DNA from: Candidatus Hodarchaeum mangrovi
GTDB taxonomy: Archaea > Asgardarchaeota > Heimdallarchaeia > Hodarchaeales > Hodarchaeaceae
NCBI GenBank assembly: GCA_016839515.1
Contig: JAEOUE010000169.1
Coordinates: 1-11,314 of the forward strand
Direction of reading: 5' to 3'
DNA: 11,314 nucleotides
Made by a program: the position numbers and the translations under genes. Position 1 is the first letter of the stretch, and each line of letters begins with the position of its first letter. This document shows positions 1,393 to 11,015 of this stretch, in pieces. The notes under the pieces are model-generated. The model did no database searches and was not told the DNA's origin. It saw only the letters and a list, made by a program, of their open reading frames with translations.

Positions 1393-1421
1393 TTAAATAC
1401 TTAAATTAAAGTATTTAAATA
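1393..1421. promoter_or_regulatory. Near-perfect 26-bp palindrome overlapping a TATA-like box upstream of the GTPase cluster
   Basis: TTAAATACTT (1393-1402), AAATTA, AAGTATTTAA (1409-1418): the 10-bp arms are exact reverse complements. TTTAAATA lies at 1414-1421, followed by an SD-like GAGGT before GTG 1442. Confidence 0.45.
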
Positions 1422-1441: not shown

Positions 1442-2452
1442 GTGAGCCACTATCTCAAACAATTAAAGCAGTCTTCAACTCGCAAAATCATTCTTCTAGG
1501 CTTATCACAAGCAGGGAAAACTTCGATTAAAGATGTAGTTTTTGGAGGAAAAGCACCAGAGGAAACAAAAGATTATGCAGCTACTTTAAATTATGAACGC
1601 CAAATTGAAGAAGTAGCTGATGAACCCATTACTGTAATGGATCTTGGGGGTCAGGAGGTTTTTTTAAAAAGATTCTTAAGCAGTATGAGCTCATTTATAT
1701 TCAGTAATGTAGCAGTTCTGGTATTCATATGCGATATTTTCACCCCAGATAAATTTCCAGCATCAAGAAAAGCATTTGTAGAGGGAGTTAGTCGACTAGA
1801 AGAAATGTCTGATGTACAACCAGCTATCTATGTGCTACTCCATAAAACGGATTTAATGACCGATCTTACTCAGAGAGCAGAACGAATGGAATTTTTGATG
1901 GAGATGTTCCAAGATGCTGCACCAAATAAAAATATAACATTTTTGCAAACCTCAATTTATGACAATTCAATCCATGAGGCTTTTAAACGGATAACTGCTG
2001 AAGCTAGTGAAATTATTCCAGAGGCGGAAGAAATAGAAAAAGAAGAAGATCTAGAAACAATAAAAAAACGATTACGATTGCGTCCTATCCAGCAGGTCCT
2101 CCATACTTTGAAATTTATGAATAGACTAGATGAGGTCCTGTTAATATCTTTAGATGACCCTGATTTTCGAATAAATGCATCTGATCTAGATATAAATGAG
2201 ATCCAACATGTCTTAAATCTAATGACACGAACAAACGATCTCCAATTAGTCGCAAATTCCAGATCAGAACTTCAACGCTTTGGCTCGGTATTAATCTATC
2301 GATCTAGACTTGAAAGTTTACCACAATTATTAATCATTCTTATTTCAACTGATGCAAAATCAACCTTAGAAACTAAAAATATTTCAGATATTGAGGAGGA
2401 TGTACGATTACTGGCTAAACAATTAGAAAGTATGATTCAACAATCCACATAA
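1442..2452 (+). CDS. Rag/Gtr1-like small GTPase with C-terminal roadblock-like domain (paralog A)
   Basis: G1 GLSQAGKTS, switch I YAATLNYE, G3 DLGGQ, FIFSNVAVLVFICD, G4 HKTD, G5 TSIYD. HKxD and TSIxD are Gtr1/RagA hallmarks. An acidic linker precedes a ~120-aa alpha-beta-beta-alpha-beta-beta-beta-alpha pattern. GTG start. Confidence 0.9.
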   Translation: MSHYLKQLKQSSTRKIILLGLSQAGKTSIKDVVFGGKAPEETKDYAATLNYERQIEEVADEPITVMDLGGQEVFLKRFLSSMSSFIFSNVAVLVFICDIFTPDKFPASRKAFVEGVSRLEEMSDVQPAIYVLLHKTDLMTDLTQRAERMEFLMEMFQDAAPNKNITFLQTSIYDNSIHEAFKRITAEASEIIPEAEEIEKEEDLETIKKRLRLRPIQQVLHTLKFMNRLDEVLLISLDDPDFRINASDLDINEIQHVLNLMTRTNDLQLVANSRSELQRFGSVLIYRSRLESLPQLLIILISTDAKSTLETKNISDIEEDVRLLAKQLESMIQQST

Positions 2453-2465
2453 GGCAGGCTTCATT

Positions 2466-3407
2466 TTGTACCAGAACCTTCTAGTTCTTGCAGGATTATC
2501 TCATTCAGGGAAAGACCTTTTGTTTAATCAAATTACAAAATTCAGTAAAAGTGAATCAAATCAAAAAGTCGAGGATATTATAATTTATTTTGATTGGCTT
2601 TTTAAAACCTTTAAAAAATCTGATACATCTTATTTAAATGATCTTTTAGCCCCAATCAGAGAGAGAATACTTAAACGAATACATACGCTAATATATGTTC
2701 ACGATATTACCTATCAACGATTAGATGAAACGGTCAATGACTTTAAAGAAGTCATTACCCAGATTGAGTCTTACAATAAATCATTTAAAGTTATTCTGCT
2801 GCTAAACCGAGGTCATCTTATTCCAAATGATATAGAACGAAATAATATTTTAAGAAATGTTTCTGCACGTTTACAACAAATTATTCCTCAAGATATTTCA
2901 GCATATGTTGTTTCTCTGAAAGGTCCTGATGAACAACGGTTAACAAACATGATAATTAGCCAAATAATAAGTAGAGGGGTAGATTTTAGCCTTCAAAAGG
3001 AAAAAGAAAAGAATCAGCAAACAATTACTTTAAATAATTCTCAACAGAAAGCAATTCAATCCATTTTGACTGAAAAAATGACCGATTATGGATTTGCAGG
3101 GGCATACATATTGACTGATAATAACAAGGTCATTTTAGCCAAAGGTAAAAATCAAAGCTGGGAAGAAAAAGTAGGCCCACAGATTATCCGTGTTCTTGCT
3201 CAAGAAGGGGCTTTTGAGGTATCTCAAGGATCAAAAATTAACATTGTACGGGTCGAGGATTTTCTTATGATCACTCAGTTAGTTACAAATAGAATTAAAC
3301 TGATTTTACTTGGAAGGGAAACAAATTTTAAACTAAATAAGGAATCTTTTGCCACAATAGAGCGAAAATGTAGTGAATTAGTGAAATCCTTAAGTTCGAA
3401 ATTATAG
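2466..3407 (+). CDS. Degenerate Rag-like pseudo-GTPase with C-terminal roadblock-like domain
   Basis: TTG start 13 bp after the upstream stop. P-loop LVLAGLSHSGKD; strand IIIYFDW lacks DxxG; IHTLIYVHDIT; G4 position LLLNRGH; G5 position YVVSL. The C-terminal IQSILTEKM..FAGAYILTDNNKVIL..FLMITQLV..IKLILLG..helix pattern fits roadblock/LAMTOR topology. Confidence 0.7.
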   Translation: MYQNLLVLAGLSHSGKDLLFNQITKFSKSESNQKVEDIIIYFDWLFKTFKKSDTSYLNDLLAPIRERILKRIHTLIYVHDITYQRLDETVNDFKEVITQIESYNKSFKVILLLNRGHLIPNDIERNNILRNVSARLQQIIPQDISAYVVSLKGPDEQRLTNMIISQIISRGVDFSLQKEKEKNQQTITLNNSQQKAIQSILTEKMTDYGFAGAYILTDNNKVILAKGKNQSWEEKVGPQIIRVLAQEGAFEVSQGSKINIVRVEDFLMITQLVTNRIKLILLGRETNFKLNKESFATIERKCSELVKSLSSKL

Positions 3408-3408
3408 G

Positions 3409-3416
3409 TTTATATA
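3409..3416 (+). promoter_or_regulatory. Possible internal archaeal TATA box (TTTATATA) for the third and fourth cluster genes
   Basis: Consensus-like TTTATATA in the 47-bp gap after the 3407 stop, followed by SD-like GGAGA before ATG 3455. The AT-rich background weakens the signal. Confidence 0.35.
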
Positions 3417-3454
3417 AAAGGAATTATACTTAGTACTTGGAGATTTGAATCTAG

Positions 3455-4258
3455 ATGATAACGGGTCTTATCTGCACTACCATGACTGATATGGGCCCCT
3501 ACCCTCTTTTGAATTTATCTTCATTGTCAGAAGATACTACGGTCAAATTAAGTGTGATTGGGATGACTATTCTTTCAATGGGTGCAGGCACGGTTGCTGA
3601 AAAACAACATTATAGACTACATGGATCTATTCCAGTACCTGATACTCCTGATTACGAAGCATTGGCAATGTCTTTCACAGTTATTCCAAAAACTACAAAA
3701 GATGCCCGAATTATTCAACATGGACGTGAATAAACTATTTGGCTGATTTTTGAATCAAAGAATCGAGAACAAGTATTTTCTATGCATTCACAAATTGAAA
3801 AAACTCTCCAACGAGAATCAAAAGTTCTAAAGGAAGAAGATGACTTAATTGACCCAGGAAAAATGCAAACAATCTTTAATCGAATGAAAAATTTATGCGA
3901 AGAGTTATCAAATGGAACCATACCATCTATGGAATATCAGCCTCAAGTTTTGGCTGAACGAGGAGGACTGGAATACTATACAATCAATGATGTAGGGGAT
4001 CCCCTTCCATTACAACCAAACGATGAAATCATGGACAATTCGGTTTTAATTATAGCGAATACGATTTTAAAGAGATTATTGGTTATAAAATTAAAAGAAA
4101 ACGTATCACAGCGTTTAATGTTTATAGCAGGACGGAGTGCATCTAATTTAAATTCAAACAGATTTAAAAATGAATTCACTATTCGTAACGTGTTAGACCC
4201 CTTAGAAAGGGAAATGATTATTGAAAAGATTGGAATATTGCGCGAAATCAGTGAATGA
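3455..4258 (+). pseudogene. Single gene (267 codons) interrupted by an in-frame TAA at 3731-3733: N-terminal uDENN/longin-like domain plus C-terminal gelsolin-like domain
   Basis: ORFs 3455-3733 and 3782-4258 are in the same frame (offset 327 nt). The 16 intervening codons are open and read TIWLIFESKNREQVFS, a hydrophobic beta-strand that continues the fold. No obvious SD precedes 3782. A true nonsense allele, a base-call error and readthrough cannot be told apart here. Confidence 0.75.
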
Positions 4259-4274
4259 TCGGAGATTACCCTAA

Positions 4275-5204
4275 ATGTCATACCTTACACGAAAGAAAGC
4301 CAGTAAAGTCCTAATCCTTGGATTAGCAGAATCAGGAAAAACAACTATTATACGAGCTGTTACAGAAGGAAAAATACTATCCAAGGAAACAAATTATAAT
4401 CCAACAATTGACTATGAAAGAAAACAAAAAGTTGTTGCTGGAACAGAGATTACGATCTTCGATTTAGGCGGACAAACTGCTTTTCTTGATCGATTTACAG
4501 GCGAACTATCAGAATTTATCTTTAGCGGAGTAAAAGTTTTAGTCTTTGTAATTGATTCGCTAAATATCCCTGAAATTCAACGTGCAAAATATTATCTTGA
4601 TTTAAGTTTGAAAAAAATTAACCAATTTAGTCCTGAAGCATCGATTTTCATATTTCAACATAAAACCGATCGTGTACCCAAGAATCTTAGAGATGAGGTT
4701 AAACAAACCATTTATGAATATCTTGCAGCAGGAGTAACTCAAACCTTAAAGTATTATGAAACTACAGTATTTAATGATTCTATTTTTAGTGCTATGGGAG
4801 ATGTTTATGCAGAAGCAAGTGGAGCAAAGAAAACTCTCCGGCCCTTACTAGAAACATTTATCAGACATAATTATGCTGATATGGCTCAAATATATACAAG
4901 AGAAGGAGCTCCTTTAACTAAAATCGAAAATATAGATAGATTTGATCATATATCGTTAGCTGAAATCAAAGAAGTATTTGATGCACTTATGAACCGGTTA
5001 TCAAATTCAGAGTATCAAGAATCAACATCTATTCTCATGGAATCAGCGAGAAGAGTCTTTATGATACGAATATTAGATAATGGACTGTCAATATTCTTTG
5101 GATTCCCTAAAGAACGATTACGTGAACATAATGAACCAGTTCCATCATTATATAATAAAGTTCTTGCGTTTTGCTCTCAATTACAAAGCATAACTGAAGG
5201 TTAG
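4275..5204 (+). CDS. Rag/Gtr1-like small GTPase with C-terminal roadblock-like domain (paralog B)
   Basis: G1 GLAESGKTT, switch I YNPTIDYE, G3 DLGGQ, FIFSGVKVLVFVID, G4 HKTD, G5 TTVFND. C-terminal LRPLLETFI..ADMAQIYTREGAPL pattern is roadblock-like. SD-like GGAGA upstream. Confidence 0.9.
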   Translation: MSYLTRKKASKVLILGLAESGKTTIIRAVTEGKILSKETNYNPTIDYERKQKVVAGTEITIFDLGGQTAFLDRFTGELSEFIFSGVKVLVFVIDSLNIPEIQRAKYYLDLSLKKINQFSPEASIFIFQHKTDRVPKNLRDEVKQTIYEYLAAGVTQTLKYYETTVFNDSIFSAMGDVYAEASGAKKTLRPLLETFIRHNYADMAQIYTREGAPLTKIENIDRFDHISLAEIKEVFDALMNRLSNSEYQESTSILMESARRVFMIRILDNGLSIFFGFPKERLREHNEPVPSLYNKVLAFCSQLQSITEG

Positions 5205-5389
5205 TCTATTTCACAGTATTTTTACCTCTTAAGAAGGAATTTTCTAGGAAAAAGCACAAATTTTCTATCTCTCAAGGATTTTCTCTGTAAAGCAAAAAAG
5301 CATCAATTCGTTTAAATACTCAACAAATGCAGGGGAATTAAATATCAATTATTAAAAAAATTGATTTGTTTTGAAGGAGAGATTATAAC

Positions 5390-6436
5390 ATGCTAGTGCA
5401 AAGTGTTGATAGTTGGATCACCCCTGTATTTTATTTCCTTGGAGGTATCCTTCTAGGACTATTAATCGAATTAATTATTTTCACGAGGTTTAGAAGATCA
5501 CTTTCAAGGGTAAAATGGAAAGGATTCATAATAATTTCCAATTCTTTAAGAGGAATCCCTTTTTTCTGGTTTTTCTTACTAGGTTCTTATCTGGCAATTG
5601 TAAGTATTCCTACCGATGTCTTAAATATTGATTTAACATTTCTTGATCTATTGGCAAGAGGATTTTTCTTGATTTTTATTTTAACATTCCTAATGATTCT
5701 TGCTAAAATGACTAATGGCTTTATCACTCATTATTCGGAAAAAACAGAAGGAGCTTTAGCTAGTACCACTCTAGTTACTAATATAATAAATTTAATCTTT
5801 CTTTTACTAGGATTTTTAATTATTATTCAGTCATTGGGTATCGACATAACTCCATTGCTTACATTGTTAGGTGTTGGAGGATTGACAGTCGCTTTGGCTT
5901 TACAACCTACCCTATCGAATTTTTTCTCTGGAATATATATTATTGCAGCTAAGGAATTTTCTGTAGGTGATTTTATAAGACTTGATACAGGTGAAGAAGG
6001 ATATATCGTTGATATGAATTGGAGACATACAATAATTCGACCTCCTGCTAAATATGATATTATTATCCCGAATATTCGACTTGCCACAGCCTCGGTTACG
6101 AATTTTGGAATATCCTCAAAAGAAATTCAAATCACCATTCCTTTAGGAGTAGGTTATGAAAGTGATTTGGAACATGTAGAACAAGTAACCGTTGAAGTAG
6201 CTATACAAGTAATAGAGCAAGTACAAGGAGAAAAACCTACTACTCTACCTTATATCCGATACCATACATTTTCTCCTTCATCTATTGATTTTAATGTGAA
6301 TATCTATTCTAAAAAGTTAAAAGATAGGGCTAAAATCCGTCATGAATTTATCAAACTCCTCTATAAACGATACAAATCCGAAGGTATAGATATTCCATAT
6401 CCAACCACTGTAGTATTATCAAAACCTTTAGCATGA
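5390..6436 (+). CDS. mscS: Small-conductance mechanosensitive channel (MscS family)
   Basis: About five TM segments, then LGIDITPLLTLLGVGGLTVALALQPTLSNFFSGIYI, FSVGDFIRL, GYIVDMNWRHT, IIPN, GVGYESDLE, EGIDIPYPT. SD-like AAGGAG upstream. Confidence 0.95.
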   Translation: MLVQSVDSWITPVFYFLGGILLGLLIELIIFTRFRRSLSRVKWKGFIIISNSLRGIPFFWFFLLGSYLAIVSIPTDVLNIDLTFLDLLARGFFLIFILTFLMILAKMTNGFITHYSEKTEGALASTTLVTNIINLIFLLLGFLIIIQSLGIDITPLLTLLGVGGLTVALALQPTLSNFFSGIYIIAAKEFSVGDFIRLDTGEEGYIVDMNWRHTIIRPPAKYDIIIPNIRLATASVTNFGISSKEIQITIPLGVGYESDLEHVEQVTVEVAIQVIEQVQGEKPTTLPYIRYHTFSPSSIDFNVNIYSKKLKDRAKIRHEFIKLLYKRYKSEGIDIPYPTTVVLSKPLA

Positions 6437-7874: not shown

Positions 7875-9668
7875 TTATTTTAATGTTGAATAGTAAAATT
7901 CTCCAATTTCTTTTTGAGTTTTGTCCATTTGAGAATCTGCCTTATTAATTCTTGCCCGTCCAGTTTCTGTGTCTCGTCGAAAAGTTATATCTAGGCTCTT
8001 AAGAAAAGCATTCATTCCTTCACGTTTTGCTAAAGGTCCAGAAACATAACCATGCTTAGCTGGGATCCCATTGAAAAGCATAATTCGATCTCCAGTAAAA
8101 TCAGCAAGTTGAATATCATGCTCAATGGATATTACAGCACTAGCTGGATTACGTTTAATCTGGTTTCTAATAACACTAGCAATTTTTGTTCTTTCAAGGG
8201 CATCTAGGAATGCAGAAGGTTCATCTAGGATGAATAAATCTGCTTCACGAGCTAAACATGCTGCAATAAAGACCCGCTGGTTTTCCCCTCCAGAAAGATC
8301 CTGCATGTTACGTTTGAGAAAATGAGTGATCCCAAGAGGATTTAACAGTTGTAATTGCCAGTATTTTGTATTTAAATATTTTCCAGTAGTTTGTTGTAGA
8401 AATTCTGAAACATTAAGGTCATAATTCTTGGAAATCAACTGAGGTTTGTAACTAATAACCGCAGGAATTTTGGCAACATTTGGAATTTTACCAGAGATTA
8501 AATTAGCAAAAGTTGTTTTTCCTAATCCATTTTCTCCCACAGCCACCATAATTTCTCCTAAAAAGATACTTCCTTCTCTGATATCGAGACTAAAATCCCC
8601 TAATCTTACTGACATTGATGGCCAAGAAATTGCTGGTCCTAGCTTAATTGCTCTTTCTTTTGCTGTTCTTTTAAATGAAATTACTCGTGGTCGGAAATGA
8701 ATATTTTCATCCTTTAACCATCCAGTTAAAAACGAATTTAATCCTTTTTTAACAGAAAGAGAGCGTGAAACGACTCCATAAACATGAGGTTCTCCCCATA
8801 AGATGTGGATAAGATTAGACCAGTAATCTAAAACTGATAAATCGTGTTCAACAACAAGAACATAACGCCCTGCTCTTTGTTTTAAGTTAAAAATTCTAGC
8901 TAGAGCTAGTCGTTGTTTCACATCAAGGTATGTAGCAGGTTCGTCTAATAAATATACATCAGCTGGTTGTATAAGGGCATAGGTTATCGCAATTCTCTGT
9001 AATTCCCCTCCACTCGTCTGATTTAATCTCTTACCGAGTAGATTTCTCACCTCTAAAATATCCATGACTTCAGTGTCTTCAGTTTCAATATTTGCATAAA
9101 GCTCCTCAACCGTAATAGCTTTATGTTTCATTTGATCTAGATTCTGTTCCTTGATAGAGACTTTAATGGTTCCTTGCGAAACATCGTCCAAGAATCTTGC
9201 CATTCCAGGAGTTGTCAATGAATTAAGAAATTTGTCAAAGGAATCAGGGGTCGAAAATCCGCCATTAGGTTTGATGTCTCCTGCAAGAATATTTAAGAGT
9301 GTAGACTTTCCAATTCCGTTTTCTCCAACGATTCCAGTCACTAAGCCTTTGTTTAGAAGGGGGAGACCATAGAGTCGGAACTCAGAGTCAACATACTCAT
9401 GAACTGGACTCCATGTTTCTACCTCTCCTGGAATATTAACTACACTTATTGCCCGTTTAAAACAGGCATTAACACAGACACCACAATTGATACAGTGTTT
9501 TTCTACTATTTGTGGGAACAAGGAATCTCCACGAAGTTTTATTGCTTTGGGAACGATTTGGGGATTGTTTTTCTTACCAGTCATATTTACTGGACAAAGG
9601 TTAATGCAACGGTAATTACAGGTATCAGGTGAACATTTATTTCTTAATACAACCGTTTTCTTCTTCAT
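7875..9668 (-). CDS. rli: ABCE1/RLI1 ribosome recycling ATPase with N-terminal 2x[4Fe-4S] domain (divergent)
   Basis: CX4CX3CX3CP and CX2CX2CX3C Fe-S motifs. Two NBDs: GENGIGKST/TSGGELQR/LLDEP/EHD and GENGLGKTT/LSGGENQR/ILDEP/EHD. C-terminal hinge TFRRD..TGRARINK..SQMDKTQK. Confidence 0.95.
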   Translation of the reverse strand: MKKKTVVLRNKCSPDTCNYRCINLCPVNMTGKKNNPQIVPKAIKLRGDSLFPQIVEKHCINCGVCVNACFKRAISVVNIPGEVETWSPVHEYVDSEFRLYGLPLLNKGLVTGIVGENGIGKSTLLNILAGDIKPNGGFSTPDSFDKFLNSLTTPGMARFLDDVSQGTIKVSIKEQNLDQMKHKAITVEELYANIETEDTEVMDILEVRNLLGKRLNQTSGGELQRIAITYALIQPADVYLLDEPATYLDVKQRLALARIFNLKQRAGRYVLVVEHDLSVLDYWSNLIHILWGEPHVYGVVSRSLSVKKGLNSFLTGWLKDENIHFRPRVISFKRTAKERAIKLGPAISWPSMSVRLGDFSLDIREGSIFLGEIMVAVGENGLGKTTFANLISGKIPNVAKIPAVISYKPQLISKNYDLNVSEFLQQTTGKYLNTKYWQLQLLNPLGITHFLKRNMQDLSGGENQRVFIAACLAREADLFILDEPSAFLDALERTKIASVIRNQIKRNPASAVISIEHDIQLADFTGDRIMLFNGIPAKHGYVSGPLAKREGMNAFLKSLDITFRRDTETGRARINKADSQMDKTQKEIGEFYYSTLK

Positions 9669-9960: not shown

Positions 9961-10473
9961 GTGGAACAAATTGCTCATTTAGAATGGACTCTCGGGATTG
10001 GCTTGATTTGTGCTTCAATCTGGAACATAGAAGTAACCGCACTTGGATTTTTTCTTCTAGGTATTGGTTCAGTATTTCCCGACCTTTTTGATTGGTTCAT
10101 CTTCCGTGGAAAGCGATTCTCTGAAGGACATAGAGAATTATCTCATACAGTTTATTTCTTAGGATTATTAATATTATTGAGTATTATTGTACCAATTATC
10201 GGATACCTAACATTTGGTAGTATCCTTCATATTTTTGAGGATGTTTTAGCAGGACGAGACTATATCTATATTTTTTCACCGCTTACTCATCGTGGAGGGA
10301 TTCGCTTGATCACTAAAGAACAATCAATAAAAATAGGGGGATTTATTCGTGATATAATTAAAGGATCATTTTTAGGCTCCGAAAATATTGGAAATGAACT
10401 ATCTTGGTTCTGGTTTCTAACCATAATTGGGTCATGGTTTTTAATTGGGGGAATCTTAATGTATTTTGGTTAA
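9961..10473 (+). CDS. Membrane-bound metal-dependent hydrolase (YdjM-like), paralog 1
   Basis: N-terminal His, GSVFPDLFD, HRELSHT and LHIFEDVL motifs between TM helices. GTG start with GGAG upstream. Confidence 0.8.
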   Translation: MEQIAHLEWTLGIGLICASIWNIEVTALGFFLLGIGSVFPDLFDWFIFRGKRFSEGHRELSHTVYFLGLLILLSIIVPIIGYLTFGSILHIFEDVLAGRDYIYIFSPLTHRGGIRLITKEQSIKIGGFIRDIIKGSFLGSENIGNELSWFWFLTIIGSWFLIGGILMYFG

Positions 10474-10487
10474 GGAGTGGATCTAGA

Positions 10488-11015
10488 ATAGAAGCATTAA
10501 AACATACAGAATGGGTGTTCGGCACAATTTTTATCTGGTTTGCGGTTTTTGACCTTGAATTTACTCCCATTTGGATTTTAATCGTAATATTCGGAAGTCA
10601 AATTCCTGATTTCCTTGAATTGATGCTTATTCGATTAAAATGTCCACAAAATACCGCTCGGAAGATATCGCATGATTACGCGATTGTGTTGTTTCTTTGG
10701 GTAATAATTCCTTTTAATTTATACCCTGAATTAAACCTTCTCACAACAGCGATAGCAGTCCATTATGTTATTGACTTATTTTCAGGACTTGAACCAATTT
10801 ACATTGCAGGTTTTTTATTTGGGGAACGAACAGCTATATTATATGTAACAACAGAACACCGAATTGCTATTGGGAAAAGAATTGATAATTGGGGATCAAA
10901 TTACTTGATTGCTGAAACTGAAGACCCTACTCCAGAACTCGCGTGGTTTTGGGTGATGCAGCTTTCAGGAACCATATTCTGTGGCATAGGGGCAATAATG
11001 TATCTTTCATTCTAA
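10488..11015 (+). CDS. Membrane-bound metal-dependent hydrolase-like protein, paralog 2 (probable start ATA 10488 rather than 10404)
   Basis: HTEW, GSQIPDFLE, ARKISHD, VHYVIDLFSG and ELAWFW are collinear with paralog 1. The ORF-track start at 10404 overlaps paralog 1 by 70 bp, whereas ATA 10488 aligns with the Met of paralog 1. Confidence 0.7.
   Translation: MEALKHTEWVFGTIFIWFAVFDLEFTPIWILIVIFGSQIPDFLELMLIRLKCPQNTARKISHDYAIVLFLWVIIPFNLYPELNLLTTAIAVHYVIDLFSGLEPIYIAGFLFGERTAILYVTTEHRIAIGKRIDNWGSNYLIAETEDPTPELAWFWVMQLSGTIFCGIGAIMYLSF

Follow-up and report, generated by a model that had tools for sequence, protein, structure and literature searches.

The closest described systems to the locus reported here are the eukaryotic Rag heterodimers (RagA/B-RagC/D, Gtr1-Gtr2) with the longin-fold regulators GATOR1 (NPRL2-NPRL3-DEPDC5) and FLCN-FNIP, and their relatives in Asgard archaea. 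The genome of 'Ca. Prometheoarchaeum syntrophicum' MK-D1 has an operon with a pair of Rag-like genes, whose products are predicted to form a roadblock-mediated heterodimer, and it also encodes GTPases fused to longin and/or roadblock domains (Tran et al. 2024, PMC10933270). Asgard longins of the FLCN/SMCR8 type, including some from Heimdallarchaeia, carry a Gly-Pro (GP) motif before strand 2 and an arginine finger; the study reporting them covers 15 longins and describes the Gly-Pro motif beside an arginine finger as specific to the type found in GTPase-activating proteins (GAPs), and as present in some Asgard longins (Traffic 2025, PMC12290439). A conserved Asgard operon encoding a LAMTOR1-like roadblock protein, a Rab-like GTPase and a DENN protein was described by Liu et al., whose preprint also reports NPRL2-like longins elsewhere in Asgard archaea and no homolog of the mTOR kinase catalytic domain in these organisms (10.1101/2020.10.19.343400). 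The eukaryotic Rags themselves have been placed among Asgard RagGtr proteins, in a preprint that includes no neighbourhood analysis (Vargova et al.). Here we describe a block of four genes, g1 to g4, in contig JAEOUE010000169.1 of 'Candidatus Hodarchaeum mangrovi', that brings Rag-family GTPases and a longin protein together.

The letters and predicted open reading frames (ORFs) of the whole 11,314-nt stretch (~32% G+C), hereafter the window, were analysed. Among archaea, the Hodarchaeales are the order that has been put forward as closest to eukaryotes. The results support the presence of three paralogs of Rag architecture and one longin protein of NPRL2/FLCN-like fold in a conserved, operon-like Hodarchaeales block. 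We consider it probable, with some reserve, that the block is an operon encoding a GTPase switch of the Rag type along with a dedicated regulator, and by its motifs and predicted fold this regulator, g3, would probably be a GAP. The genes and the parts of g3 are the following:

1442..2452, + strand: g1, 336 aa, GTG start, Rag/Gtr-family GTPase
2466..3407, + strand: g2, 313 aa, Rag-shaped protein with a degenerate G domain and a predicted roadblock tail
3455..4258, + strand: g3, 267 codons, two-domain longin protein, interrupted in the window copy
3455..3910, + strand: N-terminal longin domain of g3, residues 1-152, from the AlphaFold2 (AF2) model and Foldseek
3731..3733, + strand: in-frame TAA, codon 93 of g3, read from the sequence
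3959..4255, + strand: C-terminal domain of g3, residues 169-267, gelsolin-like fold in the AF2 model
4275..5204, + strand: g4, 309 aa, Rag/Gtr-family GTPase

All four genes lie on the + strand with intergenic gaps of 13, 47 and 16 nt, in agreement with a sequence-only reading of this DNA, which had described four co-directional genes at these spacings. It had also named two of the products as Rag GTPases, and g1 and g4 bear this out. Against the Pfam family Gtr1_RagA (PF04670, curated cutoff of 22 bits), g1 scores 116.6 bits (E = 1.6e-33) and g4 105.2 bits (E = 4.5e-30). The G1-G5 motifs of g1 are intact (GLSQAGKTS, DLGGQ, HKTD, TSIYD), as are the G motifs of g4 (GLAESGKTT, DLGGQ, HKTD), and the elements GxxxxGK[ST], DLGGQ and HKTD are invariant in g1 across 19 genomes and in g4 across 20. 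The best solved relatives of g1 are Gtr1 (2e-18) and RagA (6e-15), and that of g4 is RagA (8.8e-16, or 1.6e-18 using the g4 family profile); both proteins also match the Lokiarchaeota structures 8zla and 8yl2 by sequence. As judged from these comparisons, both are GTPases of the Rag/Gtr family in which no catalytic motif is missing. Both score better against Gtr1/RagA (2e-18 and 8.8e-16) than against Gtr2/RagC (9e-12 and 9.5e-11), and for this reason neither is assigned to the A-type or the C-type.

Between g1 and g4, the G domains share 33% identity. The number of invariant columns in the G domain is 150 of 190 for g1 (1442-2011, 19 genomes) and 97 of 180 for g4 (20 genomes), with 61 of 127 in the g4 tail. 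The constraint on the g1 G domain is unusually strong for a small GTPase, the neighbouring M50 peptidase being just 51-61% identical. No C-terminal Cys motif and no evident membrane segment were seen on inspection of the cluster sequences, so any membrane link of these proteins would be indirect.

The second gene encodes a protein that is Rag-shaped, with altered G motifs. Its match to Gtr1_RagA is weak, but above the cutoff (32.4 bits, 8.2e-08), and its motifs read GxSHSGKD at the P-loop, D-W-L-x in place of DxxGQ and NRGH in place of [NH]KxD. Relative to intact motifs, the P-loop Ser/Thr is replaced by Asp, the Gly and Gln of DxxGQ are lost, and the Asp of NKxD is replaced by His. All 21 sequences compared share these changes without variation, apart from D43, which 19 of them retain. 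The AF2 model of g2 (predicted local distance difference test score, pLDDT, of 79.5) matches whole chains of RagA, RagC, Gtr1 and Gtr2 as top Foldseek hits (3e-12 to 1e-10), as well as the LokiRagM and LokiRagO entries. Normal GTP binding and hydrolysis by g2 are argued against by the Asp after the P-loop Lys and by the loss of the DxxG Gly and the NKxD Asp. The term pseudo-GTPase, used for g2 in the sequence-only reading, thus fits at the level of motifs, combining as it does a Rag-like fold with a conserved loss of G-motif residues.

That reading had further proposed three roadblock-like tails, of which the one of g2 is borne out by its model. In the g2 model, the tail (residues ~191-310) has an a-b-b-a-b-b-b-a fold that matches MglB with a template modelling (TM) score of 0.68-0.72 in Foldseek, and on this model it is a roadblock domain. 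The g1 and g4 tails are putative roadblock folds. Residues 150-336 of g1 give a weak collinear alignment (E = 0.004) to the C-terminal half of Gtr2, and the alignment of the g4 family profile to RagA ends at RagA residue 232. Profile comparison (hhalign) among the tails of g1, g2 and g4 was not significant, and the full-length family profiles of g2 and g4 gave no significant match to each other.

The protein encoded by g3 was modelled on P0002, an intact form, with an alignment of 66 relatives. In this model (pLDDT 81), residues 1-152 have the longin topology b-b-a-b-b-b-a-a, and a disordered linker leads to a second domain of ~95 aa (b-b-b-b-a-b-a, residues 172-266 as modelled), which was absent from the earlier description. 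The best Foldseek match of g3 is 8yqg, the dimeric longin of a Lokiarchaeota Roadblock-Longin protein (E = 5.9e-06, TM 0.65), followed by chains of three GATOR1 entries (2.9e-04 to 8e-04), a chain of a FLCN-FNIP2-Rag-Ragulator entry (1.5e-03), and then DENND10, Lst4 and TRAPP longins. The Foldseek output gives no subunit name for the matched GATOR1 chains (~365 residues), which we take from their size to be NPRL2. As modelled, the g3 longin falls into one fold class with the Rag and Arf GAP subunits of eukaryotes, and its proposed link to NPRL2 and FLCN is one of fold and motif only. The C-terminal domain of the model resembles 7c2f_B, Thorarchaeota ProGel in complex with actin (TM 0.68 over 89 columns), and gelsolin domain 2 (5fae, TM 0.55); chains of Sec23, villin and adseverin were matched by Foldseek as well.

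A wider profile search of 1.84 billion representatives (E up to 0.001) gave 117 relatives of g3. Among 32 divergent ones (21-57% identical), G57 and D83 are invariant, and at least 90% keep G4, D12, G14, P15, G36-M37-T38, P60, P62, F74, R85, G90 and R91. The element D12-x-G14-P15 is at the start of strand 2 (modelled residues 14-20), and its G14-P15 is also kept in at least 90% of the 66 close relatives. Both R85 and R91 are in the loop before strand 5 and are invariant in these 66. This pattern speaks for g3 as a probable GAP, since GAP-type longins are reported to be marked by a Gly-Pro motif paired with an arginine finger (PMC12290439). A language-model search with the longin part returned clusters of hypothetical Asgard proteins and one weak lead to NPR2 (19% of members PF06218, score 0.88), and scans of g3 against NCBIfam and PADLOC gave nothing. 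A subfamily of seven relatives (P0093, P0095, P0097, P0100, P0106, P0108 and P0109; 332-375 aa) has the same longin with the Gly-Pro and arginine motifs, followed by a C-terminal tail of ~180 aa that replaces the gelsolin-like domain and has no significant Pfam match.

Conservation of the gene order, one of the checks suggested by the sequence-only reading, was observed in all 18 of the 18 related loci with enough flank. These loci stem from a single search of species-representative genomes, made with two narrow peptide patterns, which yielded 20 loci, all from metagenome-assembled genomes of Heimdall- or Hodarchaeota type, some labelled otherwise. The genes g2, g3 and g4 follow in order in 20 of 20, and g1 is complete in 18, cut in L013 and past the contig start in L006. 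With start codons as chosen by the script, on which the gap sizes depend, the g1-g2 gap in 19 loci is 10 nt in 16, 11 nt in one and ~120 nt in two, while between g3 and g4 there are 14-19 nt in 18 of the 20 loci. Identity to the related loci is 74-80% for g1, 70-75% for g4 and 71-87% for the first 92 codons of g3. The corresponding values for the neighbours are 51-61% for the M50 protease and, for the tRNA synthetase, 61-64% in eight of the ten loci with the gene and 35-36% in L016 and L020. By these identities the four-gene block is more conserved than its neighbours.

Fused relatives add an independent line of support for linking g3 and g4 functionally. A Pfam scan covered 48 of the 117 g3 relatives. 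It includes P0077 (597 aa), in which a whole g3-like protein precedes a g4-like Gtr1_RagA domain; P0107 (548 aa), with a weak Fuz-type longin, the g3 C-terminal domain and a Gtr1_RagA domain; and P0186 (508 aa), in which a g3-type longin is joined to an Arf-like domain. A search with P0077 as query added P0281 (554 aa), where the g4-like GTPase part comes after an N-terminal part, and P0282 (540 aa), where another longin is followed by the g3 C-terminal domain and a g4-like GTPase. The g3 C-terminal domain is recognised in P0107 at 40% identity over 86 residues and in P0282 with an hhalign probability of 97.8, in both cases directly upstream of the g4-type GTPase, and P0107 and P0282 have two members each.

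In the three fusions checked (P0077, P0107 and P0282), g3-type modules are therefore joined to a g4-type GTPase, and the order of the parts is the gene order, g3 then g4. The GTPase parts of P0077, P0107, P0281 and P0282 match g4 over its full length (226-248 bits) and g1 in the G domain only (106-119 bits), and they group with g4 against g1 in a 23-row tree (support 91/90). On these sequence comparisons, no other evidence for a functional connection of g3 with g4 is, in our view, as strong as the fusions.

In the mechanism that we propose, the Rag-like proteins would pair through their C-terminal roadblock domains, as in Gtr1-Gtr2, with g2 acting as a non-hydrolysing partner or scaffold. The g3 protein would dock on the G domain of g4 and stimulate GTP hydrolysis, using R91 or R85 as an arginine finger.

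A number of observations weigh against this proposal. The tails of g1 and g4, searched alone, gave no significant match to any solved chain. With the match limited to a single domain, g3 has low TM scores to the GATOR1 and FLCN chains (on the target, 0.17-0.25), and its family profile found no sequence match to NPRL2, FLCN or any solved chain (best E = 0.48). Where the profile check suggested earlier succeeded for g1, g2 and g4 with Gtr1_RagA, it returned no Pfam match for g3, nor for 21 members of its family at E up to 10. The correspondence of R85 or R91 to the finger of NPRL2 depends on the latter being in the loop before strand 5, as we assume it to be. The operon holds no second longin subunit, and the eukaryotic GAPs are longin heterodimers. 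P0077 has one member and keeps the g4 Met at its junction, so it may be two merged ORFs. The wider neighbourhood (tyrosyl-tRNA synthetase, M50, ABCE1-like and YdjM genes) is also syntenic in the related loci, which makes conserved order alone weak evidence within one order. Longin and roadblock platforms are reported to act mainly as guanine nucleotide exchange factors (GEFs), not as GAPs (PMC10933270). Finally, g3 is interrupted in the window copy.

The interruption was overlooked in the sequence-only reading, which listed g3 as one longin-like gene; the longin-like character is borne out by the model, but the single open frame is not. The TAA at 3731-3733 divides the frame: a piece of 92 aa precedes it, and an ORF of 158 aa begins downstream at ATG 3782. 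When relatives were sought with the stop codon read through as X (267 residues), 65 of the 70 found in the database covered at least 96% of this sequence as a single protein, the other five comprising the 158-aa piece of the window itself and four entries that are short or partial. The closest relative is P0002, a hypothetical protein of 267 aa from 'Candidatus Hodarchaeum mangrovi', which is identical at 262 of 267 positions. The site of codon 93 is a serine codon in 20 of the 20 related loci (TCA in ten, TCC in six, TCG in three and TCT in one), all of which have g3 without an internal stop, and among 20 aligned homologs the residue is Ser in 19 and Thr in one. Recoding of TAA was rejected, because TAA serves as the stop codon of g1 and all relatives carry Ser or Thr at this position.

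The TAA is thus either a strain-level nonsense mutation or an assembly error. If it is a true nonsense codon, g3 would be a pseudogene or a split gene, and the switch of the window would run without its regulator, a possibility that we rate as appreciable although below even chances. It would be in line with a stop where 20 of 20 loci have serine, with the occurrence of the 158-aa piece (P0043) on one contig only in the protein database, and with the Met at residue 110 (Ile in P0002), which supplies a start codon for the downstream piece. The five differences between g3 and P0002, however, are confined to residues 87, 93, 110, 119 and 120, the other 233 residues outside 87-120 being identical, a pattern more like an assembly or strain-mixing patch than gene decay. 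Moreover, a g2 that is 100% identical to that of the window is found on two contigs, the longest of 36,686 bp, and this same figure is listed for the longest contig of P0002, from which an almost identical assembly probably has g3 intact. The differences span 34 residues (3713-3814) and include both the stop and the start-creating Met, and this segment may be a local assembly or strain-mixing patch.

Next in strength is the explanation that the four proteins do function together, with g3 as an exchange factor, a scaffold or an effector instead of a GAP. We find it unlikely, but worth keeping in mind. Besides the GEF activity that prevails among longin and roadblock platforms (PMC10933270) and the lack of sequence homology of g3 to NPRL2 or FLCN, it draws on the fused proteins P0107 and P0112/P0114, which carry a Fuz/MON1-type longin instead (weak Pfam Fuz_longin_1 matches, E of 0.003-0.007), and the same cassette therefore exists with a GEF-type longin. 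What speaks for a GAP is that the Gly-Pro motif and the two arginines are kept in at least 90% of the 32 divergent relatives and that this combination is reported to be absent from non-GAP longins (PMC12290439). In addition, the best fold matches of g3 after the Lokiarchaeal longin are chains of GAP complexes.

It is also conceivable that the genes are neighbours by inherited synteny alone and form no joint system, which we judge very improbable. The wider neighbourhood is conserved in the same loci, as described above, and in MK-D1, small GTPase genes as a rule do not share operons with genes for roadblock or longin proteins (PMC10933270). Yet the one-strand gaps of 10-19 nt are kept although the housekeeping neighbours are just 51-64% identical, g3-type modules fused to g4-type GTPases exist, and the four-gene block is constant while the content directly downstream of g4 varies, with an MscS gene in the window only, a 201-aa ORF in L010 and nothing in L016. 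A mirror-tree comparison was made with 14 of the 20 loci, leaving out L005, L006 and L013 (contig ends) and L001, L009 and L018 (no long M50 match). Every pair of genes correlates (r of 0.85-0.97), and after regression on M50 the values are 0.79-0.82 among g1, g2 and g3 and 0.62-0.65 between g4 and the others; this comparison is not discriminating, as shared ancestry confounds it.

An equally improbable proposal is that the g3 C-terminal domain is a true gelsolin-type actin binder coupling Rag-like switching to the Asgard actin cytoskeleton, for which the ProGel, gelsolin, villin and adseverin matches speak, while these matches are at fold level only (10-13% identity), the same fold occurs in Sec23, beside the Sar1 GTPase, with Sec23 chains among the matches too, the domain is fused directly to GTPases in relatives, a language-model search with it gave no usable match, and a Pfam scan of the window found no actin-related gene. 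The actin link suggested by the sequence-only reading is weak, resting only on the gelsolin-like fold of the model.

An AT-rich spacer of 564 nt precedes g1 and holds candidate start signals, and a spacer of 185 nt separates g4 from the next gene. The signals read from the sequence are:

1414..1421, + strand: TATA-like TTTAAATA, putative promoter element
1430-1434, + strand: GAGGT, ahead of the GTG start of g1
5219..5223, + strand: run of five T, 15 nt past the g4 stop, putative terminator

Upstream of g1, the window contains the end of a class I (Trp/Tyr-type) tRNA synthetase gene (Pfam) and a divergent Cys-rich ORF of 114 aa (533-877, - strand). The latter has eight Cys and a basic C-terminal tail, belongs to no Pfam or NCBIfam family, and has tblastn matches of 48-56% identity at the same position in 12 of the 20 related loci. 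In 15 of the 20 loci (L001-L005, L007, L008, L010-L012, L014, L015 and L017-L019), another small GTPase gene is present on the minus strand ~2.4-3.9 kb upstream of g1, a position that would fall past the 5' end of the window; its product is 31-38% identical to the g1 G domain.

Downstream of g4, Pfam identifies an MscS-type mechanosensitive channel, an M50 peptidase, a minus-strand ABCE1-like ATPase and a YdjM pair. The MscS gene (5390-6436, + strand), between g4 and the M50 peptidase, has no match in any of the 20 related loci. The ABCE1/RLI-like ATPase (7875-9668, - strand) shares 41-44% identity with the corresponding protein in 14 of the 16 loci with the gene there and 63-64% in L016 and L020, a split in sequence identity that suggests paralog replacement or uneven divergence. 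At 9961-11015 (+ strand), a YdjM-family gene and a paralogous ORF form a tandem pair whose listed frames overlap by 70 nt; the second ORF is matched in other loci only from about residue 27-29 onwards, so its true start is probably later. Searches of the window for Rfam families and tRNAs found none, and neither the ORF list nor the Pfam scan revealed a second longin gene. A defence-system identity for the locus was considered and rejected, the PADLOC scan having given nothing.

In a bolder form, the operon would be a living minimal pre-TOR Rag-GAP nutrient switch: a Rag-like dimer, paired through roadblock domains, in which one partner is catalytically dead, together with a longin GAP that uses an arginine finger and acts specifically on the g4-type Rag, all encoded as one unit, with the longin GAPs of GATOR1 and FLCN descending from such Rag-linked, and not Arf-linked, longins. 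We hold this to be doubtful in its entirety. Asgard Rag-like GTPases and GAP-type longins were each known before, and what the locus adds is the tie between both, through genome context, in Hodarchaeales. The published literature leaves open how longins and GTPases are matched to each other (PMC12290439), and the use of operons for finding GTPase partners has been named as an outstanding one (PMC4917890). For one family, the locus gives a direct genomic answer, as a Gly-Pro/arginine longin lies between Rag-family genes in every related genome examined. A system of four proteins is also small enough to be reconstituted, and could be used to test whether Rag-GAP regulation predates eukaryotes and TOR.

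The four-gene arrangement, which the sequence-only reading believed undescribed, was not found in the openly accessible literature, supplements aside, and a word search of the main text of Eme et al. 2023 for 'Rag', 'longin' and 'roadblock' found none of them. What is in print comes close to it, in particular the Rag pair and the longin-GTPase-roadblock fusions of MK-D1 (PMC10933270). The Rag-like paralogs are side by side there as in the Hodarchaeales cluster, and the fusions resemble the fused g3/g4 relatives, whereas the MK-D1 operon is described in the accessible text as the pair only, with no mention of a longin gene. The Asgard longins of PMC12290439 share with g3 the longin fold, the Gly-Pro motif before strand 2 and a conserved arginine; that study gives no genomic context and leaves open whether the partners are ArfR or Rag/Gtr GTPases. 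The operon of Liu et al. likewise combines a small GTPase with regulators of the roadblock/longin superfamily related to FLCN-Ragulator, but its GTPase is stated not to be of the Rag family, and the Hodarchaeales cluster has neither a DENN domain nor a stand-alone roadblock protein (10.1101/2020.10.19.343400).

Among solved archaeal proteins, LokiRagM (8zla, 9m28) and LokiRagO (8yl2) are matched by g1 and g4 in sequence (8zla and 8yl2) and by g2 in fold, and the longin of the Roadblock-Longin protein (8yqg) is the best fold match of g3; the entry titles describe these as monomeric, homotetrameric and dimeric single proteins. The bacterial MglA-MglB system also sets a small GTPase, of the Ras-like type, beside a regulator of the same superfamily, the roadblock GAP MglB that the g2 tail matches. 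In the Hodarchaeales block, by contrast, the roadblock domain, modelled in g2 and putative in g1 and g4, is part of the GTPase chain itself, and it is a longin protein with an additional domain that stands apart as the candidate regulator.

Compared with the eukaryotic system, the cluster has three Rag paralogs instead of two, one of them with degenerate G motifs, and one longin protein in place of a longin heterodimer. The g3 protein has no DENN, NPRL2 C-terminal or DEPDC5-like part and carries the gelsolin-like domain instead; there is no Ragulator-like gene in the window, and the genes are in one putative operon. At the same time, g1, g2 and g4 belong to the same Pfam family, Gtr1_RagA, as the eukaryotic Rags and share their layout of a G domain and a C-terminal domain, the fold of g2 matches whole Rag chains, and g3, the candidate regulator, likewise has a longin fold in its model, with a Gly-Pro motif and conserved arginines.

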